Positions 5,029 through 61,851 of a stretch of 64,000 nucleotides of DNA are shown one piece after another. Every line of letters starts with the position of its first letter. The first letter of the stretch is position 1. The DNA comes from Defluviitaleaceae bacterium (GTDB lineage: Bacteria > Bacillota > Clostridia > Lachnospirales > WQUN01). The stretch lies in the NCBI GenBank assembly GCA_009781765.1, contig WQVC01000001.1:14774-78773 (forward strand). The letters are read 5' to 3'. The position numbers and the translations under genes were made by a program. The notes below the pieces were generated by a model, which saw nothing but the letters and a program-made list of their open reading frames with translations, had not been told where the DNA came from and did not search any database.

Positions 5029-5073
5029 TTTATCATACCTCCGAAAAAATTTCATCAGATTTAAATGTTTATT

Positions 5074-5212
5074 CGGGGCTTCGCCCCAGACCCCACGAAC
5101 TTTTTGAAAAAAGTTCGACAAAAACTTCATTAAAATCGCGCGACGCGCGATTTTTGATTAAGTTTTGATGAAACTTTTTCAAAAGTTTCCGGGGTGCGGG
5201 GCAGAGCCCCGC
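5074..5212. repeat. family A palindromic element, copy A2 (intergenic)
   Basis: CGGGGCTTCGCCCC, then CGAACTTTTTGAAAAAAGTTCG, AATCGCGCGACGCGCGATT, GAAACTTTTTCAAAAGTTTC and GCGGGGCAGAGCCCCGC. Confidence 0.9.
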
Positions 5213-5229
5213 AGTTTCAATCGAATATT

Positions 5230-7104
5230 TTATAAAAAACGCGACGGTTTAACGGGCTTGTCGTAGCGTGTTTTTATTGCGGACAAATAGAGTTCTTTTT
5301 TGGCGCGGGTTGCGCCGACGTAAAACAGGCGGCGTTCTTCCTCAATTTCGGAATCGGTTTTGCTTCGAATGTAGGGCAAAACGTCCTCGACCGCGCCTGC
5401 AATGAACACGCGCTCAAACTCCAACCCCTTCGCACTGTGAAGGGTTGTAAGTGTGCAACACGGACCGGTTTTATCCCGCGTTTTAGCGGATTCCGCAACG
5501 GTTTTTGCGTGTGCGATAAATTCGCCGGCTGTTGCAAACTCCTTCGCCGCTTCCTGCAATTCGTCGGCGATTTCAAAAAGCCCCGCAGGATTCAGTTTTC
5601 TGTACTCGCATGTGTCGATTATATACCCATTATACCCTATATTTGCGCGAATGTAACGCACTTGTTCATCCGGACTGTGTTTCGCCAGACGAATAAGGTC
5701 GCCGTGAAGCTCCTCGATTGTCGTTTTGGTGGCGAAATGCAGGGCGGGGTCGCTCTTGTACGCCGAAAAAATGTTTTTGTCGTCGCGTCGTGCGGCTTGC
5801 AAAAATACTTTGCTCACAAACCGAAACGGTTTGTTTATTATTCGTGCCGCGTCTGCATCGAAGCCGGTTTTTTGCCGAAGTTCGAGCCGCCGCGCAACTC
5901 GCATGTACGCGAAAAAATCTTCCGCAAGCCAGTGTTCGTAAATTGTCGGGGCTTCGTCGCGGCTTTTGAAGGGGATGTGCAGGTTTAAAAATGCGTCCGT
6001 AAATGCCCGCGCCTGTATGTTCAAACGAAACGCAACCGCGATTTCATCCAAATTCGCGCCGCTTTTCCAAAGGTCGCGAATTTGACGCGCAATTTCTGCG
6101 GCTTCGCGGTTTTGGTCGTCGTAAGTGGTGAACACCGGCGGAGTGCCGCTTTTTTCCGTGCCGCGAATATTTTTATTGTACCGCGATTTGTTGGCGGAAA
6201 TCAAATTATTGGAGTATTTGATGATTTCATCGGTGGAGCGGTAGTTTATGTCCAACGTGATTTTACTCGTTTCGGGAAAATCCTTGGGGAAGTTAAGCAA
6301 AAATTCCGGCCGTGACCCGCGAAAACGGTAAATACTTTGGTCGTCGTCGCCCACCACGAACAGGTTGTTTTCCGGCGCGGCAAGTAACTTCACCGTTTCA
6401 AATTGTACGCGATTTATATCTTGAAACTCGTCTATCATTATAAAGGGATATTTTTCGCGCCAGTAATTCAGCTCGGCATCGTTGCTTTTAAGTAATTCGT
6501 AGGTTTTGCACAACATGTCGTCGAAATCAATTTTATTTTTTGAGGTCTTGTATTTTTCAAACTGTCGGCACACTGCAACAAAATCATCCGCACCGATTGT
6601 TTTCGAATAATAATCTTTCAAATCGTGTAACTCGTTGCGAACAAGAGACATTTCCGACAGCAACGACGACAGTGTATCATCATCCGGTTCGTATCGCAAT
6701 TCCGCCAAAAAACCGCGCACAACGCCGCGCCTTTCACCCTCCGCAAGAATTTGCTCGGTGGTGAAGCCGGTTTTGCGCCGAAGCATTCGAAAAAACGCAG
6801 AGTGAAACGTACCGAAAGCCGGCGGTGGTGCGCCAAGGACGCCGGGGGCAAGAATCGGGGGCGGCACATGCTCTCGAAGCCGGGGGTCGAAAGCGGATTG
6901 TGCGACTCGTTTGTATCGTTTTTCCATTTCCGTTGCGGCGGCCTTCGAATAAGTAATGACCAACACGCCGCGCGGCTGCAACGACGCCAAAAACGCCGCA
7001 CGTGCCGTAATAACAGCGGTTTTTCCGCTTCCCGGTCCTGCGAGCACCATCATTGGCCCTGCAACATGCCGCGCCGCCGCAAGTTGATTATCGTTTAGAT
7101 TCAT
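5230..7104 (-). CDS. UvrD/REP-family ATP-dependent DNA helicase (short, ~625 aa)
   Basis: Walker A AGPGSGKT, DEFQD motif II, VGDDDQSIYRFRG, C-terminal TLHSAKGLEFERVF and YVGATRAKKEL. The ORF-track start at 7131 is TTG, so I prefer the ATG at 7104 (MNLNDNQL). Confidence 0.85.
   Translation of the reverse strand: MNLNDNQLAAARHVAGPMMVLAGPGSGKTAVITARAAFLASLQPRGVLVITYSKAAATEMEKRYKRVAQSAFDPRLREHVPPPILAPGVLGAPPPAFGTFHSAFFRMLRRKTGFTTEQILAEGERRGVVRGFLAELRYEPDDDTLSSLLSEMSLVRNELHDLKDYYSKTIGADDFVAVCRQFEKYKTSKNKIDFDDMLCKTYELLKSNDAELNYWREKYPFIMIDEFQDINRVQFETVKLLAAPENNLFVVGDDDQSIYRFRGSRPEFLLNFPKDFPETSKITLDINYRSTDEIIKYSNNLISANKSRYNKNIRGTEKSGTPPVFTTYDDQNREAAEIARQIRDLWKSGANLDEIAVAFRLNIQARAFTDAFLNLHIPFKSRDEAPTIYEHWLAEDFFAYMRVARRLELRQKTGFDADAARIINKPFRFVSKVFLQAARRDDKNIFSAYKSDPALHFATKTTIEELHGDLIRLAKHSPDEQVRYIRANIGYNGYIIDTCEYRKLNPAGLFEIADELQEAAKEFATAGEFIAHAKTVAESAKTRDKTGPCCTLTTLHSAKGLEFERVFIAGAVEDVLPYIRSKTDSEIEEERRLFYVGATRAKKELYLSAIKTRYDKPVKPSRFL
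6865..6883. repeat. family E motif copy inside the helicase CDS
   Basis: CACATGCTCTCGAAGCCGG, translated on the minus strand as PRLREHV. Confidence 0.55.
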
Positions 7105-12689: not shown

Positions 12690-13783
12690 ATTCCGCCGGA
12701 GATTTTATTCGCAACGGCGGACTTGTTGTGTTTCCGACGGAAACGGTTTACGGACTCGGCGCGGACGCTTTTAATCCTGACGCTGTTGCGAAAATTTACG
12801 CCGCGAAGGGTCGCCCCGGCGACAACCCGCTTATTTTGCATATCGCAAATGCGGGCGATTTTTCGCGCCTTGCGCACGAACCGCCGGATTACGCCTTTGC
12901 ACTTATCGAAAATTTTTGGCCGGGGCCGCTCACGCTTGTTGTGCGCAAAAATCCGACATTGCCGGCATGGCTCGGCGGGCATCCGAGCGGCACGACCGAA
13001 ACCGTCGGTATACGAATGCCGGCGCATCCCGTTGCGAGGGCGTTAATCGAAGCGTCGGGTTGTGCGATTGCCGCGCCGAGCGCAAACAAAGCCGGCAAAC
13101 CGAGCCCGACGAGCCTCGCGCACGTACTCGAAGATTATAATGAAGCCGAACGCAACGGCATTTTTTTTCTTGATGACTCCGAGCGAAACGACGAATTTAT
13201 CGGGCTTGAATCGACAGTCATTGATGCTACGGGCGACAAGCCCGTTATTTTGCGTCACGGCGGCATTACGGCAGAAGAAATTCTATCGGTAACCAACCGG
13301 CTGCCAACAGAAACAGCGAACGCTTCCCGTTGCGCAATAGCAACAGTGAGCGAAGCGAACGCTTCCCGTTGCGCAACAGAATTTGAACCGGCGCGAAAAT
13401 CCCCGGAAAATCCCCGTTCCCCCGGAATGAAATACAAACACTACGCACCGCGCGCGGAAATGACGATACTTTCGGGTCGGCCGGAAAAAATCGCGGAGTA
13501 TATCTCAAACGTCGGGGCGGGAAAAATCGGCGCGTTGGTAAGCGCGGAAACAGCGACGCATCTCCCCTGCCCTGCTCCGCCGAATTTGAAAATTCTCCCG
13601 CTCGGCGACGACGCGAGCGGCGATAAAAAAATCATAGCGCGAAACCTTTTCGCTAATTTGCGAAAATTTGACAGCCTCGGTGTTGATATAATTTTCGCCG
13701 AAGCCGTTTGCGAAAGCGGAATCGGCGCGGCAATAACGGACAGAATGCGCAAAGCCGCAGAGGGGCGCGCAGTAAGCGTCTGA
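12671..13783 (+). CDS. tsaC: L-threonylcarbamoyladenylate synthase (Sua5/YwlC type)
   Basis: YrdC-domain motif [40 protein letters not shown], and a C-terminal Sua5 domain. Confidence 0.88.
13283..13377. repeat. family B element, copy B1 (in frame inside tsaC, partly duplicated)
   Basis: CTATCGGTAACCAACCGGCTGCCAACAGAAACAG..CGAACGCTTCCCGTTGCGCAA occurs twice. It is the reverse complement of 29490-29559. Confidence 0.85.
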
Positions 13784-15111: not shown

Positions 15112-15219
15112 CAGAGAGTGTCGAAAAATTACGCTTTCGCATATGCCGCATCTCGGCAACCGGTCTGAATCCGCCGGTTTCCTGCGATGCCGACACAGCT
15201 TATTTTTCAACACTCTCTG
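15112..15219. repeat. family C TIR element, copy C1 (overlaps the histidine kinase stop)
   Basis: Terminal inverted repeats CAGAGAGTGTCGAAAAATT / TATTTTTCAACACTCTCTG. The core TTTCGCATATGCCGCATCTCGG..CCGCCGGTTTCCTGCGATGC is shared with the other copies. Confidence 0.85.
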
Positions 15220-20377: not shown

Positions 20378-20630
20378 GGGGGGCGTCGCCCCCTCTCACG
20401 CGCTGCGCGCGTTGGCCGGGCGGCCTCGCTGACGCGACCCGACTTCGCCGGGGGACAGCCCAAGCCCCCACCCGCTTTTTAAAGGGTGGCGCGGGAAACG
20501 TTCGCTTCGCTCACTGCGCCCTCTAAAAGCGGGGCAAAAATTATTAAAAAATCGCGCAAAGCGCGATTTTAATAAAGTTTTTGTCGAACTTTTTTCAAAA
20601 AGTTCGTGGGGTGCGGGGCGAAGCCCTGCG
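20378..20630. repeat. composite palindromic element A3 (family A modules plus family B core)
   Basis: GGGGGGCGTCGCCCCC, ACGCGCTGCGCGCGT, GGGAAACGTTCGCTTCGCTCACTG (B core), AATCGCGCAAAGCGCGATT, CGAACTTTTTTCAAAAAGTTCG. Confidence 0.85.
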
Positions 20631-20696
20631 GTTTTGATGTTCATTCGCGATATGATATACTTAGGGAGTGTGGATTATTTTTATGAGGTGGGGCTT

Positions 20697-23903: not shown

Positions 23904-24039
23904 GAGGGCTCCGCCCTCAAACTCCCGCAAGGGGACTATGTCCCCTTGACCCCGTCAAAGAATCGCGCGAATGCGCGATTCTTGTTAAATTTTACTTTTT
24001 TTAAAAAGTTCGCCGGGTACGGGGCTGAGTCCCGCGAAC
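23904..24039. repeat. family A variant element, copy A4 (intergenic)
   Basis: GAGGGCTCCGCCCTC, GGGGACTATGTCCCC, AATCGCGCGAATGCGCGATT, ACTTTTTTTTAAAAAGT. Confidence 0.8.
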
Positions 24040-24058
24040 TTGAAAGGAAGTTGCAATC

Positions 24059-27000
24059 GTGCAAATTCAATTTATTCTCGGCGGTCCCGGAACGGGAAAA
24101 TCTACATATGTTTTGCAGGAAATGTGTCGCGCGGTGCAATCGGATTTCGCCGCGCCGTTGTATTATCTTGTTCCCGAGCAGTTTTCGTTGCAGTCGGAAC
24201 GGCTTTTGCTCGAAGCGGAAAACGGTCGTGCGGCAACAACTCGCGTGCAGGTGCTGAGCTTTAATCGGCTCGCGCATCGGCTTTTTTCCGTACTCGGCGG
24301 TTTGCCGGGAAAACACGCCGACGATTTGGGCAAACAAATGCTTCTTCGCAAAGTTATTTTCGAGGTGGCGGGCGAAACGGAATTTTACAAAAGCGCGACG
24401 GACAAGCAGGGTTTTGTTTCGGAACTCGGCAGAACAATCACGGAGCTGAACCATTATCGCGTGAGCGCGGCGGATTTGCGCGACCGCGCGGCGGACTCGA
24501 CTCCGGCGTTTGCGGCAAAATTACGCGATATTGCCACGATTTTACAAAAATATCGCGAGGCCGTTACCGGGCGGCACATTCTCACCGACGACATGCCGGA
24601 AATCCTTTGCAACAGGCTTGCCGAGCTGCCCCCCGGCGAAAGTTTTCCGCTTTTGGACGGCGCGATGTTTTGGATTGACGGATTTTCCGGCTTCACCCCG
24701 CAAGAGCGACACGTTTTGCAACACATTTTAAAACGCGCCGAAAAAATCACTCTGACGCTCACCCTCAAAGATGAAATCTCCCGCGCACCGCGCGACACAA
24801 TCGAAAAAATCGAGACATTCGCACATTCCCTCCGCGCGCAAATTCTCCCGCACATACACATGAAGGAAAATTTTCGCCACGTAAACGCGCCGGGGCTTCG
24901 ATATTTTGTTAATAATTTTGGGCTTCGCCCCCCGCACCCCAATATCCCCTTGACCCCTACAGAGAAACCGCGCGAAGCGCGGTTTCTCAATAAAAGTTTT
25001 TTTGAAGGGGGCTTGGGGGAAACTTTTTTTTCAAAAAAAGTTTCCCCCAAAGAAAACATAGAAATCATATCATCAGCGGATAAATACGGCGGAGTTTATG
25101 CGGCCGCGCACAGTGTTTTGCGGCTGCGGGAGAAAGGTTATCGTTTCAGAGACATTGCGATTTTGTGCGGCGACCGCGAGCAATATGAAAAAATTTTGCA
25201 AACTGTTTTCGACCGCGAAAAAATTCCCGTTTTCGTTGATACGGAAATTGATATTTTGTCGCATCCGCTTACCGAATTGATTCGTGCCGCGCTGGATATT
25301 TTTGTGAAAAATTGGAGCATCGAAAGCGTGTTTCGCTTTTTAAAAACGGGGCTTGCCGGCGCAGACAGGGATACCATTGATATTTTAGAAAATTACGCGC
25401 TTGCAAACGGCATAAACTCGTATCGGTGGCGATACGAATTCCACGACGAAATTGCCGAAGCCGGGCGCGAAATACTGCTTCGCGGGCTTGCGCCGCTTAC
25501 ATCGAAAAAACCAAATCAATCGGTAGAGCAGTTACCAATTGAAAGCGATTCCCGCAGCGCGATTGGTTTTTGCAAATCTTCCGACACGGTTAAAAATTAC
25601 TCGAAACGTGTTTTTGATATGCTGTTCGGGCTGAATGTTCCCGAAACTTTGCAAAGTTGGTTCGACACGCACATGCTTTCCGGCGACCCGCAAACAGCGC
25701 GTATTCACGGGCAAATTTGGCCGAAAATTTGCGAGGTCTTTGATAAATTGGTCGAAATTTTGGGCGACGAAAAAGTCGAGCTGAAAACTTTTGCGGCAAC
25801 CCTCGACGCAGGATTTGTACAAGTCGGGTTGGGGCGTATTCCGCCGACCCTTGACCAAGTTGTTTTAGGCGATATTGCGCGTTCGCGTTATCCGCAAATC
25901 AAGGCGATGATTGTGCTTGGCGCGAACGACGGCGTTTTGCTGCCCACGCCGACACAATCCGGATTGTTCACCGACCACGAACGCAAATTGCTGAACAATT
26001 CCGGGATAAATGCTAAACCCGGTCGATTTGAAGTCGCGCCGGAAAACGCCGTTCGAATCAGCGAGCAAACATATAATTTGTTCTGCGCGCTTTCGCAACC
26101 GAGCGAAAAACTCATCTTGATTTACTCGGCGGGCGAAGCCGGAAAACCGTTGCGCCCGTCGCCGATTGTAAAGAAAATTCAAGCGTTGTTCCCGGGGCTT
26201 GAAACAACGCCCGCTCCCCTCCCCTCCGAGGACGCGGCCGATATGAGCGTGTTTTTCGCGCCGGTGAGGCTGTCGTCGCCTAACACCGCCGGAAGCACAA
26301 TTTTCACCGCCGCAACGCGCCTCGAAGCCTTTGCGCGTTGTCCGTTTGCGTACTATATGGATTATCTTTTGCGCGTTCGTCCGCGAAAATATTTTGAAGT
26401 TTTGCCGGCCGACCTCGGCAAACTCTTTCACGAGGTCATTGCAGATTTCACGAAACGTGGAAATTTCGACGCAACGCGGGACGAAATTAACGCCGAAGTT
26501 AATGCTCTTGTTGACGCGCTCGACCTCGAAAATTCGATTTTTTACAGCTCGGCGCGAAACAAATATGTATTGGATAAAGTGCGGCGCGTTGCGGCAGCGT
26601 CGTGTCACGCGCTTTGTCGCCAAATAAAAAACGGGCAGTATCGCCCGGGAATGACAGAACAGGAAATTTTGCACAACATCGCCCTCAACGACGGACGAAT
26701 GCTGTCGCTTTCCGGCCGCGTTGACCGCGTGGATTTTTCCGACACAAATCAAATTCGCATAGTGGATTACAAATCCGGCGCGACGAAATTTTCCCCCGAC
26801 GAAGCGTTAAAAGGCGTACAATTGCAGCTCGTTTTGTACATGAACGCGCTTTTAAAATCGCGCCCGAACAGCACGCCCGGCGGAATTTTTTATTTCCCGG
26901 TCGGCGACCCGATTATCGACACGAACGAAATTCTGCCCGACGTAATGCGCGAGGATGCCATTTTCAAAGCGTTTAAAATGTCCGGCATGGAAGCCGACGA

Positions 27001-27163
27001 CCCCGTCGCGTTCACAAATTTCGGCGCAGAGGTTGAAAACAGCGTGAAAGAACTCGGCATACGCATGTTCGACGGCGACATTTCCGCCCGTCCGTGGAGT
27101 ACAAAAAAAAGCCCCTGCGACTATTGCAATTTCGACGGGGTTTGCGGCGGATGCACCGGCTGA
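24059..27163 (+). CDS. addB: helicase-exonuclease AddAB, subunit AddB
   Basis: GTG start after an AAAGGAAG RBS. GGPGTGKST Walker A. C-terminal nuclease/Fe-S region (RLEAFARCPFAYY, DYKSG, CDYCNFDGVCG). Confidence 0.88.
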   Translation: MQIQFILGGPGTGKSTYVLQEMCRAVQSDFAAPLYYLVPEQFSLQSERLLLEAENGRAATTRVQVLSFNRLAHRLFSVLGGLPGKHADDLGKQMLLRKVIFEVAGETEFYKSATDKQGFVSELGRTITELNHYRVSAADLRDRAADSTPAFAAKLRDIATILQKYREAVTGRHILTDDMPEILCNRLAELPPGESFPLLDGAMFWIDGFSGFTPQERHVLQHILKRAEKITLTLTLKDEISRAPRDTIEKIETFAHSLRAQILPHIHMKENFRHVNAPGLRYFVNNFGLRPPHPNIPLTPTEKPREARFLNKSFFEGGLGETFFSKKVSPKENIEIISSADKYGGVYAAAHSVLRLREKGYRFRDIAILCGDREQYEKILQTVFDREKIPVFVDTEIDILSHPLTELIRAALDIFVKNWSIESVFRFLKTGLAGADRDTIDILENYALANGINSYRWRYEFHDEIAEAGREILLRGLAPLTSKKPNQSVEQLPIESDSRSAIGFCKSSDTVKNYSKRVFDMLFGLNVPETLQSWFDTHMLSGDPQTARIHGQIWPKICEVFDKLVEILGDEKVELKTFAATLDAGFVQVGLGRIPPTLDQVVLGDIARSRYPQIKAMIVLGANDGVLLPTPTQSGLFTDHERKLLNNSGINAKPGRFEVAPENAVRISEQTYNLFCALSQPSEKLILIYSAGEAGKPLRPSPIVKKIQALFPGLETTPAPLPSEDAADMSVFFAPVRLSSPNTAGSTIFTAATRLEAFARCPFAYYMDYLLRVRPRKYFEVLPADLGKLFHEVIADFTKRGNFDATRDEINAEVNALVDALDLENSIFYSSARNKYVLDKVRRVAAASCHALCRQIKNGQYRPGMTEQEILHNIALNDGRMLSLSGRVDRVDFSDTNQIRIVDYKSGATKFSPDEALKGVQLQLVLYMNALLKSRPNSTPGGIFYFPVGDPIIDTNEILPDVMREDAIFKAFKMSGMEADDPVAFTNFGAEVENSVKELGIRMFDGDISARPWSTKKSPCDYCNFDGVCGGCTG
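24920..25048. repeat. family A element, copy A5, in frame inside addB
   Basis: GGGCTTCGCCCC, AAACCGCGCGAAGCGCGGTTT, GGGGGAAACTTTTTTTTCAAAAAAAGTTTCCCCC. Translated as GLRPPHPNIPLTPTEKPREARFLNKSFFEGGLGETFFSKKVSP. Confidence 0.85.
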
Positions 27164-27184: not shown

Positions 27185-28432
27185 CTACAAAGCCGACGCA
27201 TTAACGTTTCGACGTGCGCGTTCGATGATTTCGTTAAGAACAAACGCCGCGATAACAAGCGCGATAATTGCCGGGAAAAATGCGTCGAGCGAGATATTTT
27301 CTAAAATTTGACCGATTGCAAGCGAGCCGAGTGCCGCACCTGCGCCGGCAGCCGCGACCTGCATTCCGACTAACTTTGACAGCATGGCGGGGTCGAAGCG
27401 ACGCTTTGTTTCGTTCATAAGGCAGGGAAAAATCGGCGCGAATCCGAATCCCACAAGCGCGATGCCGATAATATTGCTTGTAAAAATCAGCGCGACCAAA
27501 CCGACGCCGGCAATAAAAAATCCCGTGCGAATCACGGTTATGCCCGAAAATTTCTCAGTTATGTATCCGAAAATAAATCGCCCCGCCATTAACGCGCCGA
27601 GATACACCGCAGGAAAAAGCCCCGCCGTTTCAAACACAACGTCGCGTCGTGCGCTGTTTAACAAAACGTCAACCGTCCAAATTGTCACGGACGATTCAAA
27701 CGCTACATAGACAAAAAAGACCAAAAATTGCAAATACTGAAACCGACGCGCGGTAATAAACGAGACTTCGCCGCCGGCCGAATTTTGTTCGGCTTCCGGG
27801 GGATGCGCTTCCGAATTTTGTTCGGCTTCGAGGGAATGTGCCGCTTTCGACTCTTGCCCCCGGCTATCACCGCGCGCTTGGCGCGCATCCCAGAGTCCGC
27901 GCAAAATACTTATCAAGAGGATGAGCAAAATCAAAAACTGCACCGCGAAAATCGCTGCGTAGCCCGTTCGCCAGTCATAGTAAATTATCATTTGACGCAT
28001 AATGAGCGGGCTTATTGCGCCGCCCATTGCCCAAAAACAATGCAGATGATTCATGTGTCGTGCGGAAAATCGGCTCACAACAAGAGCGTTCGCGCCCGCG
28101 TCAACAAGGCTTGCGCCCGCGCCGAGCAGCGAGGTGGATACAAGCATTCCCGCCAAATTCGGCGAAATTATATAGCCCGCAATGCCCGCCATCAGCATGA
28201 AAAAACCGCCGCCGGTAACCCATTTCAGCCGCAAAAACTTTTCAAGCCGCCCCGCTTGCGACGCCGCAAGCGCGTAACTCAAAGAGTTTACAATCATTAT
28301 CGCCGACGCTTGTCCGCGCGAAAGTCCCATATCAAAACGAATGCCGGGTAACGCAACGCCAAACGCCTCGGGCATACCGATTGCGAAAAACGCCGCGTAC
28401 GCGGCAAGCAGCAAAAACCAAGATTTTTTCAT
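27185..28432 (-). CDS. MFS transporter
   Basis: 415 aa, 12 predicted hydrophobic segments in two halves separated by a charged central loop. Confidence 0.8.
   Translation of the reverse strand: MKKSWFLLLAAYAAFFAIGMPEAFGVALPGIRFDMGLSRGQASAIMIVNSLSYALAASQAGRLEKFLRLKWVTGGGFFMLMAGIAGYIISPNLAGMLVSTSLLGAGASLVDAGANALVVSRFSARHMNHLHCFWAMGGAISPLIMRQMIIYYDWRTGYAAIFAVQFLILLILLISILRGLWDARQARGDSRGQESKAAHSLEAEQNSEAHPPEAEQNSAGGEVSFITARRFQYLQFLVFFVYVAFESSVTIWTVDVLLNSARRDVVFETAGLFPAVYLGALMAGRFIFGYITEKFSGITVIRTGFFIAGVGLVALIFTSNIIGIALVGFGFAPIFPCLMNETKRRFDPAMLSKLVGMQVAAAGAGAALGSLAIGQILENISLDAFFPAIIALVIAAFVLNEIIERARRNVNASAL
27778..27840. repeat. 33-nt tandem duplication plus family E motif in the MFS central loop
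   Basis: CCGAATTTTGTTCGGCTTC occurs twice, and the second copy runs into CGGCTTCGAGGGAATGTG. The peptide is HSLEAEQNSEAHPPEAEQNS. Confidence 0.8.
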
Positions 28433-28511: not shown

Positions 28512-28622
28512 GGCGACCTCTGAAAACCCATCTTTTCGCATATTTCGCTTCTCGGAAAATGGCTTGAAGCCGCCGGTTTTCTGCGATGCGACACAGCTCA
28601 AAGTGGGTTTTCGGAGGTCGCC
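28512..28622. repeat. family C TIR element, copy C2 (abuts the divIVA-like stop)
   Basis: TIRs GGCGACCTCTGAAAACCCA / TGGGTTTTCGGAGGTCGCC. The core matches C1 (TTTTCGCATAT..CTCGGAAAA..CCGCCGGTTTTCTGCGATGCGACACAGCT). Confidence 0.85.
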
Positions 28623-29411
28623 TTACGTACTCGGTACGTAGTTGTCGTCCTCGTTGATACGGGCGGTAGCCTGCGGAGCGTATGTCGTCTTGTCGGAATG
28701 CTTGTTGAGGCTGGGGCTGGACATCGGGCCGAGGCTCAAGGGCTGCGGAACTGCTCCTTTGGGCGGCGGCATATACGACATCGGCGGCGGAGCGTGAGCC
28801 GCAAGCGGGGGCGCGGGCTGCTTGGGACGCGGCGAAACAGAGGGCGGCGGCAAGGCGGGGGCAACCGGAGCCGCTTCCGGAATGACGTCGTAATGCGACG
28901 CTTCATAATATGATGCGTCGGAATACACCGGCTCAGTATTTGCGCTTGCGTCGGGGGTTTCGTCGGGTTCGGGGGTTGCGGCGTCGTCGGCCGCGCCGGC
29001 CGGAACAATATCCATATCCTTGAGGCGCAAGATGAATTTATCTACATCGTCGAGCCTGTGATGCAATTCGTTTACATCGTTGCTGTCGAGTTCGGTTAAG
29101 TATTTGCGTACCATTCCCGCATAAACATCCTGAAATGCCTTGATTTTCATGCGTTGACGGTCTACTTCACCGGTAAGTTTATCCAACTCTTTGGCTATTT
29201 GCCCCTTATATTCTTCGGCTTGTGCGCGGGCGTTTTTAATCATGTTATCCGCCGCGATTTGCGCCGAAATAATCGCATTTTTAATGGCGTTATCCTTCTC
29301 TTTGTAGCTTCTTACAACTTGCTCTAATGTAGCGATATATCTGTCGACCTCTTCCGGGTCGTAGCCGCGTTTTACGTAGGTGAACTGTTCCACTGCGAAT
29401 GCTCCTTCCAT
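28623..29411 (-). CDS. DivIVA domain protein with Pro-rich C-terminus
   Basis: N-terminal FTYVKRGYDPEEVDRYI DivIVA motif, a coiled-coil region, and a P-rich tail. Confidence 0.8.
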   Translation of the reverse strand: MEGAFAVEQFTYVKRGYDPEEVDRYIATLEQVVRSYKEKDNAIKNAIISAQIAADNMIKNARAQAEEYKGQIAKELDKLTGEVDRQRMKIKAFQDVYAGMVRKYLTELDSNDVNELHHRLDDVDKFILRLKDMDIVPAGAADDAATPEPDETPDASANTEPVYSDASYYEASHYDVIPEAAPVAPALPPPSVSPRPKQPAPPLAAHAPPPMSYMPPPKGAVPQPLSLGPMSSPSLNKHSDKTTYAPQATARINEDDNYVPST

Positions 29412-29489: not shown

Positions 29490-29559
29490 TTGCGTTACAT
29501 AACGGGAAGCGTTCGCTTCGCTCACTGTTTCTGTTGGCAGCCGGTTGGTTACCGATAGG
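29490..29559. repeat. family B element, copy B3 (intergenic)
   Basis: AACGGGAAGCGTTCGCTTCGCTCACTGTTTCTGTTGGCAGCCGGTTGGTTACCGATAGG. Confidence 0.85.
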
Positions 29560-29691
29560 TTTTTCGCGCGACAAATTTTTCGCACATTTTGCAGGAAGCC
29601 ACACAAAATGCGTCAAATGTTCAACACGAATACAAAAAAATTTCGCCGTATGACAATTGCTTCCGAATATAAATACACAACCTCGCCGCAT

Positions 29692-32066: not shown

Positions 32067-32074
32067 TTGACCTT

Positions 32075-32155
32075 GGGGGAGAAACTTTTTTGTAAAAAAA
32101 GTTTCTCCCTCTCTTTTTCAAAAAATTTTAAAAAGCCGCGCTTTGCGCGGTTTTT
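32075..32155. repeat. family A element, short copy A6 (intergenic)
   Basis: GGGGGAGAAACTTTTTTGTAAAAAAAGTTTCTCCC and AAAAGCCGCGCTTTGCGCGGTTTTT. Confidence 0.8.
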
Positions 32156-32171
32156 CTGTAGGGATGGAAAC

Positions 32172-33005
32172 ATGGCGATTGATGCGAAATATTCGGGTGA
32201 CGTTGATATAATCATGTCGCATCGGTATGATTTGGGCGCGGATTATTGGACGACGCCGGATAAACGGTTAGCCAAGGGTTCGCCGTTTTCGTGCATGTGC
32301 AGTGCGTATATGTTATCGGAATTGGGCATGGAGTCGTCCGACCCTGTTTTGTCGGCGGTTGCGGAATTGTTTTTCACCACGTGGCAGAATGACGGTCGCT
32401 TCAAGTTGTATCCGAGCGGCGGAATTTTGCCGTGTCACACGGCGTATGCCGCCGATTTAATGTGTCGCATGGGTTACGTTGACGACGAACGCATTCAAAC
32501 AACTTTGCGACATTTTCTCGACACGCCCTATGCGGACGGCGGATGGCGGTGCAATAAATTTTCGTTCGGCAGAGGTCCGGAAACAGATTACTCAAACCCA
32601 CTCCCTACGCTGAACGCGCTTGACGCTTTTCGGCACAGCCGGTACTTGAACAACGAGCCTAAATTGGACAAAGCCGTTGAATTTTTGCTTGCTCATTGGA
32701 CGATTCGGACGCCGATAGGCCCGTGTCAATACGGCATGGGAACGCGATTTATGCAGGTGGAATATCCGTTGTGGAGTTATAATTTGTTTCAATATGTCTA
32801 TGTTCTGTCGTTTTACAATCGCGCCAAACGCGACGAACGATTTTTGGAGGCTCTTAGTGCGTTGCAATCCAAACTCATCGACGGGATGATTGTCGTTGAG
32901 CGAATTGTGCCGAAACTTTCGAAATTGAGCTTTTGCAAAAAAGGTCGGCCGAGCGAGCTTGCGACCGAGCGATACCGTGAAATTTCGGAGAATATAAAGC
33001 ATTGA
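32172..33005 (+). CDS. hypothetical protein, possibly prenyltransferase/terpene-cyclase-like alpha-alpha toroid repeat
   Basis: I moved the start to the ATG at 32172 because the upstream part of the ORF is repeat A6. The DGGWRC and WQNDGRF motifs give only weak family evidence. Confidence 0.4.
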   Translation: MAIDAKYSGDVDIIMSHRYDLGADYWTTPDKRLAKGSPFSCMCSAYMLSELGMESSDPVLSAVAELFFTTWQNDGRFKLYPSGGILPCHTAYAADLMCRMGYVDDERIQTTLRHFLDTPYADGGWRCNKFSFGRGPETDYSNPLPTLNALDAFRHSRYLNNEPKLDKAVEFLLAHWTIRTPIGPCQYGMGTRFMQVEYPLWSYNLFQYVYVLSFYNRAKRDERFLEALSALQSKLIDGMIVVERIVPKLSKLSFCKKGRPSELATERYREISENIKH

Positions 33006-34396
33006 GTGCGGTAAACATCCCCGACTATGCGGCAAAAATTATCGCTGCCCTGACCGCCGCCGGACACGAGGCGTTTATCGTAGGCGGGTGTGTGCGCGAT
33101 ATGATTCGCGGCGCAACCCCCGGCGACTGGGACATTGCAACATCAGCCCGACCCGACGAGGTTAAGGGCTTGTTTTCGCGTACATTTGACACCGGAATCA
33201 AGCACGGCACAGTATCGGTGTTGTGCGGCTCGAACGTTTGCGAAGTTACAACGTATCGCATTGACGGCGAATATTCCGACAATCGGCGTCCGGCAACGGT
33301 GACTTTCGCCGGAAAAATCGAGGAAGATTTAAGCCGCCGCGACTTTACAATTAACGCAATCGCGTACAATCCGACGCGCGGATTTGTTGACCCCTTCGAC
33401 GGACGCGGCGATATTTCGCGGAAAATTATAAAATGCGTCGGCGACGCGGAAACACGCTTCGGTGAAGACGCGCTGCGAATGCTTCGGGCGATTCGATTCG
33501 CGGCGGTACTGGGGTTTTGCGTGAATTCCGACGCCGTGCGGGCAATTACGAAACTGCGCGACAATCTCGCCGATATAAGCGGGGAGCGTATTCGCGAGGA
33601 ACTGTGCAAGCTCCTTTGCGGCGCACACCCCGATGCGGCGAAATTATTGCGCGAAACCGGTATTATGCGCCAAGTTTTGCGCGGGCGCGATTTCGGCGGA
33701 AATTTGGATGAGGTAGTTTCGCGATTGCAGGTGCTTTCCGGGGGACTCTGTCCCCCGAACCCCCTGCAAGGGGGGATAACACCCCCCCTTGACCCCCGAA
33801 ATGAAAAACCGCGCGAAGCGCGGTTTTTCGAAGGGGCGCGAGAGGCTTTTCCGCAGCCCGGGAAGCGGTATACGGCTTCGAGAGAATGTGTCGCAAGCTG
33901 TACGTGCAGCCGTGCAGCGGGAAGCGTTCGCTTCGCTCACTGCTGCTATCGGTGTTCAGTCTCCCCCAAAGGGACGTTGTCAAAAGCACTTGCGTTATTT
34001 TTTGCGTGGGCGGACGATGAGTGCGAGTATGTTTTGCGCGACTTGCGGTTCGACAATAAAACGATTCGGACAGTTTCACGATTCGTGCAAAATCGCGCGC
34101 TTCCCGGGTCGCGATATGAAATAAAGAAGTTAATGCGAATTTTTCCCCCGGACGAATTTGAGGATTGGTTGCATTTGCAGGAAATTTCTCAAAAGCGTTG
34201 TTTTGAAAAAATTCGCGCGGAAGCGGCGGATATTTTGACGCGGGGCGAGTGTTTTACTTTGCGCGGGCTTGCCGTAAACGGCAACGACCTCGCCGAAGTC
34301 GGCATAACCGGCAAAGCGGCGGGCGAGGCATTGGAGAAATTTTTGGACGCGGTTATGCGCGACCCGCAAATGAACGTGAAGGAGCGGCTGTTATGA
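33002..34396 (+). CDS. cca: CCA-adding tRNA nucleotidyltransferase with ~80 aa repeat-derived insert
   Basis: GGCVRDMIRG, DWDIAT, RRDFTINAIAY, and EDALRMLRAIRF motifs. Confidence 0.88.
   Translation: MSAVNIPDYAAKIIAALTAAGHEAFIVGGCVRDMIRGATPGDWDIATSARPDEVKGLFSRTFDTGIKHGTVSVLCGSNVCEVTTYRIDGEYSDNRRPATVTFAGKIEEDLSRRDFTINAIAYNPTRGFVDPFDGRGDISRKIIKCVGDAETRFGEDALRMLRAIRFAAVLGFCVNSDAVRAITKLRDNLADISGERIREELCKLLCGAHPDAAKLLRETGIMRQVLRGRDFGGNLDEVVSRLQVLSGGLCPPNPLQGGITPPLDPRNEKPREARFFEGAREAFPQPGKRYTASRECVASCTCSRAAGSVRFAHCCYRCSVSPKGTLSKALALFFAWADDECEYVLRDLRFDNKTIRTVSRFVQNRALPGSRYEIKKLMRIFPPDEFEDWLHLQEISQKRCFEKIRAEAADILTRGECFTLRGLAVNGNDLAEVGITGKAAGEALEKFLDAVMRDPQMNVKERLL
33740..33976. repeat. composite element A7 (family A hairpins plus E motif plus B core) in frame inside cca
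   Basis: GGGGGACTCTGTCCCCC, GGGGGGATAACACCCCCC, AAAACCGCGCGAAGCGCGGTTTTT, CGGCTTCGAGAGAATGTG, GGGAAGCGTTCGCTTCGCTCACTG. Confidence 0.85.
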
Positions 34397-37540: not shown

Positions 37541-39952
37541 TCACGCTCTCACAAGCCGCGCTAAACCCGACATAAACTTTTTTTGCCCCGCGCCCGGAAA
37601 CTGCACGGTTACTTCATAATCCGCGCCGGCCGGCGTGATTTCAAGAACTTTGCCCACGCCGTATTTAATATGCTTCACATTGTCGCCGGCGGAAAAATCG
37701 GGCGGCGCGACTTTTGTTGAAAATGTTTTTTTTGCCGGGGGAACTTTTGAAAAAGTTCCCCCGGCGCCCCCCTCAAAACTTTTCTTGAAAGACCGCGCTT
37801 CGCGCGGTTTTTCTGCCGAAGCCGACCCGGCCGCTCCGCGATGCCCGGATTCACGGGGGGCAATGCTCCAACTTTTACCGGAAACCTCGCGAAGCGAGGT
37901 TTCCCTGAAGGGGTCAAGGGGACGAGTCCCCTTGTGGGGGTTCGGGGGCTGGTCGTCCGCCTGTCGGCGGACTGCTCGCCCATGCATCCCGGGCGAAGCC
38001 CCTGAGGCCTTAACGTTGCGAGCCTCGCCGTACATATTAACGGAAGTGATGCAAGTCGCCGGTACGTCGTCGAGAAAGCGGCTTGTTTTGTTGCGGGCGA
38101 TGTGGTCGAAGCGGCGACGCGAAATCGCGTGGGTGAGATAGAGGATTCGGCGGGCGCGAGTGAAGCCGACGTAGCATAATCGGCGTTCTTCCTCCATTTC
38201 CGAGGGAGTTTGGGCGTCGATTGAACGGGATGTGGGGAAAATATATTCCTCAAAGCCCACCATGAACACCACGTTAAATTCAAGCCCCTTCGCGCTGTGA
38301 AGGGTCATTAACGCTGCGGCGTCGGCGTTTTCGTCATAATTGTCCACGTCGGCAACGAGGGCAACATCTTCGAGAAATTTGCCCAAAGATGTGTCGTCGG
38401 ATTCGTTTTCGAAGGCGCGAGCTTTGGCGAGAAGCTCCTTGAGATTCTGCTCGCGCTCCGCGCCCTCGGGCGTACCGTCCTGAATTGTGCGGATGTAGTC
38501 GGTGTCGTGCAGAATTTTTTCGATAAGCGCGAGAACGCTGTTTTCGGCGGAAAATGCGGCGCATTCGTCCAGATATTCGGCGAATTGTTTGGCGGGCGCG
38601 GCTTTTTTGCCCAAATCGTGTATTTCGGAGGCGCGGGCAAGCGCCTGCGAGAAGGTGAGTTCGTTTTCTGCCGCGAACGCCTGAATTTTTGCGATTGACG
38701 CGCTGCCGATTCCGCGCTTCGGTACGTTTATTACGCGAAGGTGGGAAATATCGTCGGCGGGATTGTTGATTGCCTTGAGATACGCCAGCATGTCCTTGAT
38801 TTCCATGTGTTCATAGAAGCGTACACCGCTGAAAATGCGGTACGGAATGCCGCCGGTTACGAATTGGTCTTCGACGGCGCGCGACTGTGCGTTTGTTCGA
38901 TAAAGCACGGCGAAATCGCTGTAACGCGCCCCTTCGCGAATGCCGCGCGCAATCATTTGCGCAACAAAGTAGCCCTCGTCGCGCTCGTCGCGGGCGGTGT
39001 AAATGCGAATCGGGCCGCCGCGAGCATTTTCCGTCCACAAACGCTTTGCGGTTCGTTCTTCGTTATGAATAATTACGGCGTTCGCCGCGTCGAGAATTGT
39101 TGAGGTTGAACGATAATTTTGCTCCAATTTGATTACTTTCGCGCCGGGATAATCCTTTTCGAATCGCAAAATATTTTTTATATCCGCGCCGCGCCAACCG
39201 TAAATACTTTGGTCGTCGTCGCCCACAACGCACAAATTTTGCGCGTAACCCGAAAGATGCCGCACAAGTTCGTATTGCGCGTGGTTTGTGTCCTGATATT
39301 CGTCAACCATTACGTAACGAAAGCGATTTTGATATTTTTCGCGTATGTGTTCGTGTTGGGCGAAGAGTTCGGCAGTTTTGAAAATAATGTCGTCGAAGTC
39401 GAGGGCATTGCTGTTTTTCAGGCGTTTTTGATAAAGCGCGTAAACGTCGGCGATATTGCTTTCGCGAAAACTTCCCGCGACCATGCGTTCGTATTCCGCC
39501 GGCGAAATCAGCTCGTTTTTCTGCGCCGAAATTACTTGCGCAACATATCGCGGCGGATAATTTGTATCGCTCAAATTTTGCTCTTTGATGCATTCTTTTA
39601 TGAGACGCAGAGTGTCGGCTGTGTCATAAATCGAAAAGCCCGTTTTGTAGCCCAAATATTCAATTTCGCGCCGCAAAATTCGCGTACACGCCGCGTGAAA
39701 CGTGCTTACCCACACCTGCTCGCCGAGCGACGTTTTCGCGCTGATTCGCTCGCGCATTTCCCGCGCCGCCTTGTTCGTAAAGGTAATCGCAATAATATGA
39801 TACGGGTCAACCCCCGTTTCAATCAGCCGCGCAACACGATATGTAAGCACGCGCGTTTTTCCGCTGCCCGCCCCCGCGAAAATTAACAGCGGCCCTTCAA
39901 GATGCATTGCCGCCTCACGTTGGGCGGGATTAAGCTCGTCCAAATAATTCAT
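37541..39952 (-). CDS. pcrA: ATP-dependent DNA helicase PcrA with ~80-95 aa repeat-derived insert before the C-terminal domain
   Basis: LNPAQREAA, AGAGSGKT, DEYQDTN, VGDDDQSIYGWRGA, TLHSAKGLEF, and YVGFTRAR. I moved the start to the ATG at 39952. Confidence 0.92.
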   Translation of the reverse strand: MNYLDELNPAQREAAMHLEGPLLIFAGAGSGKTRVLTYRVARLIETGVDPYHIIAITFTNKAAREMRERISAKTSLGEQVWVSTFHAACTRILRREIEYLGYKTGFSIYDTADTLRLIKECIKEQNLSDTNYPPRYVAQVISAQKNELISPAEYERMVAGSFRESNIADVYALYQKRLKNSNALDFDDIIFKTAELFAQHEHIREKYQNRFRYVMVDEYQDTNHAQYELVRHLSGYAQNLCVVGDDDQSIYGWRGADIKNILRFEKDYPGAKVIKLEQNYRSTSTILDAANAVIIHNEERTAKRLWTENARGGPIRIYTARDERDEGYFVAQMIARGIREGARYSDFAVLYRTNAQSRAVEDQFVTGGIPYRIFSGVRFYEHMEIKDMLAYLKAINNPADDISHLRVINVPKRGIGSASIAKIQAFAAENELTFSQALARASEIHDLGKKAAPAKQFAEYLDECAAFSAENSVLALIEKILHDTDYIRTIQDGTPEGAEREQNLKELLAKARAFENESDDTSLGKFLEDVALVADVDNYDENADAAALMTLHSAKGLEFNVVFMVGFEEYIFPTSRSIDAQTPSEMEEERRLCYVGFTRARRILYLTHAISRRRFDHIARNKTSRFLDDVPATCITSVNMYGEARNVKASGASPGMHGRAVRRQADDQPPNPHKGTRPLDPFRETSLREVSGKSWSIAPRESGHRGAAGSASAEKPREARSFKKSFEGGAGGTFSKVPPAKKTFSTKVAPPDFSAGDNVKHIKYGVGKVLEITPAGADYEVTVQFPGAGQKKFMSGLARLVRA
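37733..37971. repeat. family A composite element A8, in frame inside pcrA
   Basis: GGGGGAACTTTTGAAAAAGTTCCCCC, GACCGCGCTTCGCGCGGTT, GGAAACCTCGCGAAGCGAGGTTTCC, GGGGACGAGTCCCC, GTCCGCCTGTCGGCGGAC. Confidence 0.85.
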
Positions 39953-40153
39953 AAGGGTCAACTCCTTTGCGCAGAATATTATACCGGGTTTCGCGAAAAA
40001 TTTGCGGCGAAAAATTTTTTCAAAAGTTTCCAAGGGTTCGAGGTAACGCCCCCGAGAACTTAAAAAATTAACTCCCACAAATCTGCACTTGCTAAATCGC
40101 GCATAATATGTTGTAATTCTTTCCGGTACGTTATAAAAGAAGGTGCGGATTTC

Positions 40154-42445: not shown

Positions 42446-42549
42446 CAGAGAGTGTTGAAAAATAGCTTGACCGGCATCTCGGAAGATGGCGGTTTCAGGT
42501 CATTTTCCGAGATGCGGCATATGCGAAAGCGTAATTTTTCAACACTCTC
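42446..42549. repeat. family C TIR element, copy C3
   Basis: CAGAGAGTGTTGAAAAAT..AATTTTTCAACACTCTC. The core is the reverse complement of the C1 core. It abuts the lipoprotein stop. Confidence 0.9.
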
Positions 42550-42561
42550 CGGTAATATTCC

Positions 42562-42733
42562 GAGACCTCGGACTCCGCCCAAACCCTCTCGCGTACTGCG
42601 TACGCCGGGCGGACGGGAAGTTGGGTTGGGTCGGAAACTTTTGAAAGAGTTTCATCAAAAAAACCGCGCGAATGCGCGGTTTTTTTGTGCTTCGGGGCTG
42701 CACGATTCCGGGAAAAATCCCCGTCACGGGGGC
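42562..42733. repeat. family A variant element, copy A9
   Basis: GAGACCTCGGACTCCGCCC (as in A1), GAAACTTTTGAAAGAGTTTC, AAACCGCGCGAATGCGCGGTTT. Confidence 0.75.
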
Positions 42734-43677: not shown

Positions 43678-44026
43678 ATGAACACACTGATAGCAGTATC
43701 AATCGCGCCATTTGGCGTGGGCGATGAACTTTCACAGTATGTAGCGGAAGTTGTGAAAGTTATCGAAGCGTCCGGAGTCATGCCGCACGACCTCCATGTT
43801 TACGGAAATCGAAGGCGATTGGGACGAAGTTACGCAGGTTGTGAAAGACGCAACATTCGTGCTTGCAAGCAAGGGCATCCGCACAAATGTCGTGACGAAA
43901 GCAGATATTCGCCCCGGTCGCACAAATCGTCTGACCGGCAAAGTCGAAAAACTCGACAGTATTTTGGGCGAGAAAAGAGGGCGGATTCAGGCTGGTTTCC
44001 GAGATGCGGCATATGCGAAAGCGTAA
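43678..44026 (+). pseudogene. MTH1187/YkoF-type thiamine-binding protein gene, frameshifted
   Basis: Frame 1 reads MNTLIAVSIAPFGVGDELSQYVAEVVKVIEASGV. Frame 2 reads MFTEIEGDWDEVTQVVKDATFVLASKGIRTNVVTKADIRPGR. The 3' end runs into repeat C4. Confidence 0.65.
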
Positions 44027-44043
44027 TTTTTCAACACTCTCTC
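43978..44043. repeat. family C element, 5'-truncated copy C4
   Basis: GGCGGATTCAGGCTGGTTTCCGAGATGCGGCATATGCGAAAGCGTAATTTTTCAACACTCTC. The left TIR is missing. Confidence 0.8.
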
Positions 44044-44848: not shown

Positions 44849-44958
44849 GGCGACCTCTAAAAACCCTAATTTTCGCATACCTCGCTCCTCAGAAAATGGC
44901 TTGAAACCACCTTTTCTTGCGGAGCTTCGGAGCTCAAAAAGGGTTTTTGGAGGTCGCC
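44849..44958. repeat. family C TIR element, copy C5
   Basis: GGCGACCTCTAAAAACCC..GGGTTTTTGGAGGTCGCC. The core is related to C2. It lies 21 nt downstream of the hipA-like stop. Confidence 0.85.
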
Positions 44959-44979
44959 TGTGTTGTCACAGCCACAGAT

Positions 44980-48086: not shown

Positions 48087-48113
48087 AATTATTTTCCTTT
48101 CTCGTTATACTGT

Positions 48114-48258
48114 TGGGGGGGCTTCGCCCCCAAACCCCCACGAACTTTTTGAAAAAAGTTCGACAAAAACTTTATTAAAAAACGCGCTTTGCGCGTTTTT
48201 TATTTAAGTTTTGATGAAACTTTTTCAAAAGTTTCCGGGGTGCGGGGCGGAGCCCCGC
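48114..48258. repeat. family A palindromic element, copy A10 (intergenic)
   Basis: GGGGGGGCTTCGCCCCC, CGAACTTTTTGAAAAAAGTTCG, AACGCGCTTTGCGCGTT, GAAACTTTTTCAAAAGTTTC, GCGGGGCGGAGCCCCGC. Confidence 0.9.
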
Positions 48259-48279
48259 GATTTTTATTTTATCTGAACA

Positions 48280-50748: not shown

Positions 50749-50849
50749 TTTTTTCGCCCCTCTTTATATAAGTATGCATAGATTCTTACCGGATTTTATG
50801 TGATGTAAAACAGTTTATGAGTTTGATATGTTAATGTCAAACAACAGCA

Positions 50850-50986
50850 GGGCTTTGCCCCGCACCCCACGAACTTTTTTGGAAAAAAGTTCGACAAAAA
50901 ACTCAAAAATCGCGCATTGCGCGATTTTAATTAAAGTTTTTGCCCCGCTTTTTTCAAAAAGCGGGTGGGGTTTGGGGCGAAGCCCC
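50850..50986. repeat. family A palindromic element, copy A11 (intergenic)
   Basis: GGGCTTTGCCCC, CGAACTTTTTTGGAAAAAAGTTCG, AATCGCGCATTGCGCGATT, CCCGCTTTTTTCAAAAAGCGGG, GGGGCGAAGCCCC. Confidence 0.9.
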
Positions 50987-51056
50987 GAAAGTTGTAGTGT
51001 AATGAAATCGCCGGTCGTACGTATACCCTTATGAAAACCTTTGCAAGGGGAAGAAA

Positions 51057-52427: not shown

Positions 52428-52571
52428 TACCGAATTAAAAACTGCTATATTGCGAATCCGCAGGTTTACTCGGCAATCGGCGCAGTCAAAAAATGCCACG
52501 CCTTTGCTGCAACAAAAAAACCCTATCGGTAGCCAACCGATAGGGTTTTTTATTCTACCGAAAATTCAATC

Positions 52572-52589
52572 CGGCTTCGAGGGAGTGCG
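52572..52589. repeat. family E motif copy (intergenic)
   Basis: CGGCTTCGAGGGAGTGCG. Confidence 0.5.
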
Positions 52590-52629
52590 TCGCCGCCGAT
52601 ATGCGTCCCCGGCGTCCGTCCCCGGCGCC

Positions 52630-58975: not shown

Positions 58976-59170
58976 GCAAATCGCTCCCCGAAAATAATAT
59001 TTGAAACGCCCTCAAGTGGGATAAGAGCATTGCATTAGTATTAACACAGGACACATAAAATACCCTCGCCGGAAAACACAAATCAGACCTGACTATGGTT
59101 GACTTGTTTTCATTATATTCATTCAACCGATGATTCGTCAATGAATGTGCGTAATATATTACCTCCCAAC

Positions 59171-59214: not shown

Positions 59215-59246
59215 AATTGCAGGAAATTTGAAGCACAGGAATCAGC

Positions 59247-61840: not shown

Positions 61841-61851
61841 CCCGTCACCAC

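Follow-up and report, generated by a model that had tools for sequence, protein, structure and literature searches.

Palindromic repeats in frame within addB, cca and pcrA of a Defluviitaleaceae bacterium

The Rickettsia palindromic elements RPE-1 to RPE-10 (RPEs) are palindromes of about 100-150 bp in several families which, as the work of Ogata et al. (2000, 2002) is relayed in PMC10969869, lie between genes or in frame in unrelated housekeeping genes, add hydrophilic peptides at fold-compatible positions and are read as selfish DNA. [quoted passage not shown] Repetitive extragenic palindromic sequences (REPs) were reported in open reading frames (ORFs) of R. conorii, Opitutus terrae, Thauera and others by Di Nocera et al. 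(2013), often in uvrD/rep, recBCD, uvrA/B and tRNA-related genes, in a survey that does not mention Firmicutes or Clostridia (PMC3733652). Palindromes in coding sequence are also described from the mitochondria of Nematomorpha (PMC6649704). Here we describe family A, a modular palindromic repeat that lies between genes and, in frame, within addB, cca and pcrA of a Defluviitaleaceae bacterium (assembly GCA_009781765.1). The analysed stretch, called the window below, comprises 64,000 nucleotides of contig WQVC01000001.1 (positions 14,774 to 78,773, forward strand).

With considerable confidence, we explain the intragenic copies as selfish, modular palindromes of REP- or MITE-like type, of which selection keeps those that are stop-free, a multiple of three in length and placed in permissive loops or linkers. 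Family A would be a non-autonomous modular repeat, a chain of four or five short hairpins with GC stems and AT loops, that multiplied within a termite-gut Defluviitaleaceae lineage, mostly between genes. Copies entering coding DNA would normally be lost; survival would depend on a permissive surface loop or interdomain linker, on an added length that is a multiple of three bases and on a reading frame used without a stop codon. GC-rich stems and loops of A/T runs would keep several frames open and yield disordered peptides rich in Pro, Gly, Lys, Glu and Arg, so that the hosts (AddB, CCA, PcrA, Sua5, a transporter of the major facilitator superfamily (MFS) and a UvrD-like helicase) would bear 20-100 extra residues and most likely retain their function. 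The recurrence of the peptide EKPREAR would then reflect a shared subfamily sequence in one open frame, not a functional peptide.

The repeat in addB and the modules of family A

The addB gene, host of the insert, occupies the ORF at 24059-27163 (+ strand), which encodes 1034 amino acids (aa) and is open throughout in the translation of the window. Its product was identified as AddB by TIGR02773 (2.5e-191, under the curated cut-off), by the Pfam domains ADDB_N and PDDEXK_1 and by a match at 7e-105 to B. subtilis AddB (PDB 3U44_B); the Walker A motif and the C-terminal Fe-S cysteines are kept among the invariant columns. The protein reads ...GLRPPHPNIPLTPTEKPREARFLNKSFFEGGLGETFFSKKVSPKE... across an in-frame family A repeat at 24920-25048 (+), composed of module H1 (GGGCTTCGCCCC, 24920-24931), half of the hairpin H2' (CCCCTTGACCCC, 24946-24957), H3 (24962-24988, with a 12-bp stem and AAACCGCGCGAAGCGCGGTTT at 24965-24985) and H4 (25013-25050, with a perfect 17-bp stem and GGGGGAAACTTTTTTTTCAAAAAAAGTTTCCCCC at 25015-25048). 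Translation of the inserts would yield peptides such as FEGGLGETFFSK and EKPREARFLNK.

Repeat finding and alignment of the copies within the window gave five modules in the order H1-H5. H1 is GGGGCTTCGCCCC followed by ACCCC, H2 is ACGAACTTTTTGAAAAAAGTTCG with the alternative H2' (GCAAGGGGAC...GTCCCCTTGACCCC), H3 is AAAAYCGCGC-loop-GCGCGRTTTT, H4 is GAAACTTTTTCAAAAGTTTC, extended in some copies by GGGG/CCCC, and H5 is GCGGGGCGGAGCCCCGC. The three motifs quoted in the original prediction lie where it had placed them and occur far above chance counts: with up to three mismatches, 10 matches to AAACCGCGCGAAGCGCGGTTT were counted in the window, where 0.01 would be expected, and for GGGGGAAACTTTTTTTTCAAAAAAAGTTTCCCCC the chance expectation is 0. 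It had also held that the addB segment is built of the modules of the intergenic repeats, and the alignment bears this out, as intragenic and intergenic copies correspond module for module.

Family A, a nested palindrome of ~150 nt, has about nine copies between genes, with the same hairpin modules as the addB insert. Full-length copies were found by repeat search and alignment at 1669-1842, 48112-48270 and 50837-51000 (all +). The full-length copy at 5072-5224 (+; repeat search and folding) folds as a single long hairpin, while alignment located two more, one at 20449-20641 (-), fused to a module of family C (20486-20526; see below), and one at 23913-24050 (+), in the gap between a methyl-accepting chemotaxis protein (MCP) gene and addB. 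The latter is, module for module, the closest to the intragenic copies, and its H3, just past the MCP gene, has a terminator-like score. The repeat search further gave a short copy of the subfamily of the intragenic copies (32073-32163, -), a degenerate one (42560-42700, +; H3 at 42656-42687) and a partial one just upstream of the likely pcrA start (40012-40052, -).

A full-length intergenic copy forms one long palindrome (minimum free energy -71.8 kcal/mol, z = -9.1); for the addB insert, folding gave local hairpins in a row (z = -5.5). In the intergenic copies, one half is complementary to the other, i.e., they are inverted units that give a larger hairpin, and because the whole element is palindromic its terminal modules H1 and H5 form terminal inverted repeats. 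The conservation of the H3 stem was analysed in 12 copies from the window and three other metagenome-assembled genomes (MAGs), at least one of them intragenic, against 500 shuffles. In the H3 stems, 94% of cells were paired, 5 of the 12 pairs were compensated and none of the 500 shuffles reached the observed covariation score; therefore, the hairpin itself is the conserved feature. Perfect hairpins with stems of 9 bp or more occur in coding DNA of the window only in the inserts, the one exception being in the 3' end of a gene for a phosphatase. No Rfam family matched any of the repeats, and the family A consensus and modules contain no conserved GTAG/CTAC or CGTC/GACG tag.

Conserved pairing raises the main rival explanation, that the hairpins are kept for a role at the DNA or RNA level inside genes, possibly in translational pausing, mRNA stabilisation or processing, protein binding, or as replication or recombination signals, rather than being selfish DNA that is merely tolerated. 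Stems inside genes are perfect over 11-17 bp and covary between copies, an intragenic one among them, and the hosts are enriched in DNA-repair helicases and nucleases and in tRNA enzymes, as are those of intragenic REPs of other phyla (PMC3733652). Stem covariation would be equally expected, however, if propagation of the element needs the hairpin. The closest orthologues have no inserts, so the genes work without them, and the insert positions follow protein loops and linkers and share no common position on the mRNA. No terminator-like site was predicted in the addB insert, and the idea that it acts as an internal intrinsic terminator was dropped. With a sample of only seven host genes, we consider a role of the hairpins at the DNA or RNA level unlikely.

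Sites of insertion in AddB, CCA and PcrA

Alignment with orthologues, which the original prediction had proposed as a check, showed no insert residues in 31 AddB and 21 CCA orthologues or in the PcrA of G. stearothermophilus. In AddB, the segment HPNIPLTPTEKPREARFLNKSFFEGGLGETFFSKKVSP has no counterpart in any of the 31 orthologues, including the closest one (71% identity); both near (71% identity) and more distant orthologues have FVxNF... followed nearly at once by ...IEIIxAxDxY. It is uncertain from the alignment whether GLRPP, encoded by module H1, is derived from the element or native, as orthologues have G/S-M-x-x-P there. In an AlphaFold model built on the orthologue alignment, AddB residues 292-327, modelled as a disordered surface loop and the main segment of low confidence, have a predicted local distance difference test (pLDDT) score <50 and no secondary structure, and they are flanked by a helix (278-286) and a strand (334-339) with pLDDT of about 87-93. 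At 24891-24899, which is 29 nt upstream of the insert, the native addB sequence (CGGGGCTTCG, coding for the conserved PGL) is similar to the 5' half of H1, which may be chance or a microhomology relevant to insertion.

The ORF at 33002-34396 (+) encodes the CCA-adding enzyme and reads ..PLDPRNEKPREARFFEG.. at its insert, as quoted in the original prediction. The in-frame insert (33743-33964, +; aa 248-321) has parts belonging to family A (33730-33850), family B (33872-33936) and family C (33912-33952), and since all three families are present, the insert is composite. About 72-74 residues (roughly aa 248-321) have no counterpart in the 21 orthologues. In the AlphaFold model, built in the same way, these residues are likewise the main segment of low confidence, with pLDDT of about 30, and lie between helices 235-245 and 323-333.

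PcrA is encoded by the ORF at 37541-40078 (-), with ATG at 39952 as the likely start, and likewise reads as quoted, ..AEKPREARSFKKSFEGGAGGTFSK... Its helicase core aligns to residues 9-650 of G. stearothermophilus PcrA and its C-terminal domain to residues 670-718; the linker between them has 111 residues, compared with about 20 in the G. stearothermophilus protein. The roughly 90-110 extra residues in this linker (37706-38035, -) contain two family A copies, copy 1 at 37730-37830, which reads EKPREARSFKKSFEGGAGGTFSK, and copy 2 at 37870-37950, which reads PPNPHKGTRPLDPFRETSLREVSG. The expectation that the inserts map to loops or linkers thus held for all three proteins. Judging from the alignments, the inserts in AddB, CCA and PcrA are derived, lineage-specific insertions.

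Some orthologues carry unrelated insertions of their own at the loops that hold the AddB and CCA inserts (P0019, P0023, P0048, P0051, P0057 and P0125); therefore, these loops appear to be general insertion hot spots, and the orthologues' own insertions may also be derived from repeats.

The source is a metagenome contig, and repeats are a classic cause of chimeric joins, so mis-assembly across repeats has to be weighed, together with decay, in which the hosts would be pseudogenes with accidentally open frames. The same gene continues in the same frame on both sides of each insert, though, and seven genes stay open through 48-330 nt of inserted DNA. In the orthologue alignments, AddB and CCA keep their catalytic and invariant residues, a second source has an identical CCA protein (P0123), and in-frame copies of a similar kind are present in other, unrelated contigs (L155 and P0121, described below). 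We regard artefact or decay as extremely unlikely. Translational bypass or removal of the inserts was considered as well and found unnecessary, given that frame and length are preserved.

The addA gene is not adjacent to addB in the window (24059-27163) or in the closest relative (L233, 7373-10390), and the next gene after addB is on the opposite strand, encoding an MFS transporter in the window and YibE_F in that relative; in this lineage, therefore, addB and addA do not share their usual operon.

Reading frames, further repeat families and relatives

According to the original prediction, the three housekeeping proteins carry the element in the same orientation and reading frame. This stands for the core hairpin H3 (21-27 nt), to which the shared frame is limited: in addB, cca and pcrA copy 1 it reads (E)KPREAR(F/S), and its sense-strand loop is GAA. 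A fourth host in this frame is a GerAB-like fragment (P0121; PLTPTEKPREARFLNKSFDGGSGETFSK). The claim does not extend to pcrA copy 2, in which H3 is shifted by one base, has its loop reversed and reads RETSLREVS, nor to the neighbouring CCCCTTGACCCC module, read as PLTP in addB and P0121 and as PLDP in cca and pcrA, nor to family B. As these use other frames and both orientations, the pattern fits a filter for any stop-free frame and not one privileged frame. All six frames of H3 lack stops, which lie in the AT-rich spacers, and about 8 of 42 frames of whole intergenic copies are open by six-frame translation. In the intergenic sister copy at 32073-32163, precisely the frame used within genes (the EKPR.AR equivalent) contains a stop.

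Families B and C were found by self-comparison of the window and motif searches. Family B (CCGGCTTCGAGRGAATGTGYCGC...) has six copies, four of them intragenic. Self-comparison and translation placed one in frame in the central loop of the MFS transporter (27821-27886, -; ARQARGDSRGQESKAAHSLEAE), and a second lies in the same frame and orientation in a 217-aa membrane-protein ORF (2564-2629, -; ARQACCEYRGQEPIATHALGAG); both read ARQAxxxxRGQExxAxHxLxA. The copies in the UvrD-like helicase (6837-6884, -; about 20 residues more than in PcrA structures) and in cca (33872-33936) have the opposite orientation and use two further frames, i.e., at least three combinations of frame and orientation occur among the four intragenic copies. 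The remaining two, found by motif search, are intergenic (19-41 and 52571-52617). Family C (CGGGAAGCGTTCGCTTCGCTCACTG) has four copies: one, in frame, in the linker between the domains of Sua5/TsaC (13278-13377, +), which shows a local duplication (NASRCA twice) and adds about 23 residues compared with 6F87, and, by motif search, one in cca (33912-33952) and two between genes (20486-20526 and 29494-29563). In alignments to solved structures, the extra residues of Sua5 and of the UvrD-like helicase coincide exactly with the repeats.

Altogether, about 7 of the roughly 45-50 genes in the window have a repeat-derived in-frame insert, and all host ORFs are open. About 10 of 23 modules are intragenic, whereas 81% of the window is coding sequence; the repeats are thus depleted in coding DNA (p = 6e-5).

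The use of one frame and loop orientation by addB, cca, pcrA copy 1 and P0121 could also mean that the peptide PLxPxEKPREARF..KSFEGGxGxTFSK is a functional module, such as a localisation, interaction or regulation motif, the DNA repeat being secondary. Of the five intragenic H3 copies known, four share one of six frames, which is a little above the expectation for any open frame, but the nominal p value of 0.016 is only suggestive because the copies are not independent, all belonging to a single subfamily, and the frames do not have equal probability. The same repeat DNA, though, is present about nine times between genes without an ORF, base pairing is conserved and codons are not, and other copies use other frames. 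The peptide is predicted to be disordered, the hosts have no Pfam or NCBIfam match for it, a word-indexed protein search with the three insert peptides gave no candidate that shared three 5-mers, and an exhaustive HMMER search with an insert-peptide profile found only 2 matching proteins among 1.84 billion protein representatives, although this search is not a census because short peptides are near the detection limit. A functional peptide is, in our judgement, very unlikely.

The explanation by selfish repeats filtered for stop-free frames and tolerant sites has to accommodate several observations that weigh against it. The frame bias of H3 and the two HMMER matches just described belong here. 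The intragenic share (10 of about 23 modules, and 4 of 6 for family B) is far above the norm for REPs and MITEs. With stems of 12-17 bp, the hairpins inside genes are no less perfect than those between genes, which pure neutral decay does not predict and which may point to very recent insertion or to selection at the DNA or RNA level. Copy number, absence from orthologues and presence in several genomes suggest that the repeats are mobile, presumably through a REP/RAYT-like or MITE-like enzyme (RAYT, REP-associated tyrosine transposase). However, no transposase or RAYT gene was found among the window ORFs scanned or the genes at the contig end, no target-site duplication or insertion sequence was found, no direct repeat is visible at the ends of the copies read, and no empty-site allele close enough to fix the boundaries was found, the nearest AddB orthologue, with a deletion at the site, being 71% identical; mobility and mechanism are therefore proposed only indirectly. 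The census covers 64 kb and a few loci of relatives. Under this explanation, the inserts would be translated and presumably neutral for protein function.

Family A is also present in other termite-gut Defluviitaleaceae MAGs or metagenome contigs (L079, L105, L190 and L206). In one termite-gut contig (L155), H1 and H2' lie in frame in an ATP-binding cassette (ABC) exporter (KTLGTLSQIPCKGTRPLDP, reading KGTRPLDP), in the linker between the transmembrane and nucleotide-binding domains. The contig of the closest relative (L233/L234) has seven family B copies in 20 kb, nearly all intergenic, and no family A copy. The related contigs come from MAGs of the gut of higher termites.

A scan of a genome collection with AAAYCGCGCNNNGCGCGRTTT was unspecific, returning mostly unrelated terminator- or REP-like hairpins (e.g., in Polyangium and Pseudomonas), with three Defluviitaleaceae loci among the matches listed. 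A metagenome scan with CAAGGGG-N(4-12)-CCCCTTGACCCC gave mostly human-gut and soil contigs with a similar hairpin in other contexts. Long stop-to-stop ORFs over these matches proved spurious, being antisense frames or 5' leaders, and an intragenic position is claimed for L155 only. The CAAGGGG-loop-CCCCTTGACCCC hairpin is common in the human-gut and soil contigs (L113-L232), where it sits within chains of similar hairpins (GGGGCGTTGCCCC-AAACCCC-ACAAGGGAC...) and is intergenic where checked, e.g., 5' of Lon protease and ABC permease genes; this suggests that hairpin-chain repeats form a much broader class, present in gut Clostridia as well as in other bacteria. Polyangium genomes (L014, L018, L039, L042, L050, L058, L064, L078 and L102) contain many hairpins close to H3, about 96% identical over 27 nt to GAGAAACCGCGCGAAGCGCGGTTTCTC, a likeness that is probably convergence on a simple GC palindrome.

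Further repeats and duplications were observed in the window. Directly after the family B insert in the MFS transporter, the loop at 27780-27830 (aa ~200-218) has a tandem peptide duplication (EAEQNSEAHPPEAEQNS), which suggests that more slippage took place locally at this site. A fourth repeat, about 65-110 nt long (...TTCCGAGATGCGGCATATGCGAAAGCGTAATTTTTCAACACTCTC) and without an Rfam match, lies mostly in intergenic leaders (15113-15219, 28512-28623, 42446-42549, 43975-44042 and 44849-44959) and could be a regulatory or promoter element. A 687-aa ORF without a Pfam match has a 39-nt tandem duplication at 4679-4756, giving DSDPFASFNFD twice in an acidic, low-complexity N-terminal region. A prophage-like block (58142-63737 and L235) encodes a YQBQ-like baseplate protein, DUF2577 and an Amidase_3 lysin; next to it, beyond the window, lie HicB, RelB and YafQ toxin-antitoxin genes, and a Logan assembly of SRR10512955 has the same block plus an extra HicA gene.

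Comparison with known systems

The original prediction had likened the intragenic copies to the RPEs. The behaviour does match, but it is not unique to Rickettsia (PMC3733652, PMC10969869). Like the RPEs, the repeats described here are dispersed palindromes of ~150 nt that fall into families and lie both between genes and in frame in unrelated conserved genes, at loop or linker sites. Family A differs in that its hairpin modules are separable and recombine with other families, as in the composite cca insert, and its intragenic hairpins are still perfect. The hosts also differ, a free-living gut bacterium of Clostridia type here and an obligate intracellular alphaproteobacterium in the case of the RPEs. 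Scans of AddB, CCA and PcrA against Pfam and NCBIfam, which includes the TIGRFAM models of RPE domains, gave no RPE-type domain (E <= 0.001).

Short GC-rich stem-loops with compensatory stem changes, mosaics and inverted pairs that form larger hairpins are features shared with REPs and with their composite forms, bacterial interspersed mosaic elements (BIMEs) and REPINs. The location is also similar, mostly intergenic or downstream of genes with a minority in ORFs, and the parallel between hosts is striking, uvrD/rep, recBCD and tRNA-related genes for REPs and PcrA, the UvrD-like helicase, AddB, CCA and Sua5 here. Unlike REPs, family A has no GTAG or CGTC tag, and no RAYT gene was seen in the window; it also forms longer multi-hairpin arrays and has a much higher within-gene fraction. 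Membership of the RPEs or of the tagged REPs is not supported at the sequence level; the resemblance is one of behaviour and architecture.

MITEs such as ERIC, the pneumococcal BOX element, Coxiella QMITE1/2 and those of Anabaena (PMC10969869, PMC5896051, PMC3049150) are likewise small and non-autonomous, have ORF-compatible frames and occasionally extend or interrupt genes in frame, and BOX is modular and found in a Firmicute. The repeats described here have no identified target-site duplication or parent insertion sequence, and they are internal to conserved housekeeping enzymes, whereas MITEs mostly give terminal extensions or lie in hypothetical ORFs. The 'byps' of yeast mitochondrial genes are GC-rich hairpin inserts that are bypassed in translation. 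They and the Nematomorpha palindromes resemble the present case as hairpins within protein-coding genes that stay functional. In contrast to byps, the inserts here keep the frame and have no stops, neither of which bypass would require, so ordinary translation is the simplest reading.

The original prediction had known of no such elements in Clostridia-like Firmicutes; no report was found in the literature searched, and the statement stands only in that form. The phenomenon would thus be new at the phylum level, in a free-living, termite-gut lineage of Clostridia type, with an unusually high local density, composite inserts and intact hairpins. For annotation, it is a warning that length outliers and sub-threshold equivalog scores, as in AddB, CCA and PcrA, can stem from repeat inserts. 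Three repeat families in about seven genes within 64 kb, with perfect hairpins and hot-spot loops, would make this a useful case for studying the movement of such elements, the protein sites that accept insertions and the question whether palindromes generally yield disordered linkers.

It is conceivable, if doubtful, that this lineage is a second, independent and more extreme counterpart of Rickettsia, with at least three families of hairpin repeats colonising coding regions genome-wide and their hairpins kept perfect. About 1 gene in 7 has an insert in the window, compared with about 1-3% in R. conorii. Were this so, it would imply continuing activity, or selection acting on DNA or RNA, and the repeats would be a major continuing source of disordered linkers.

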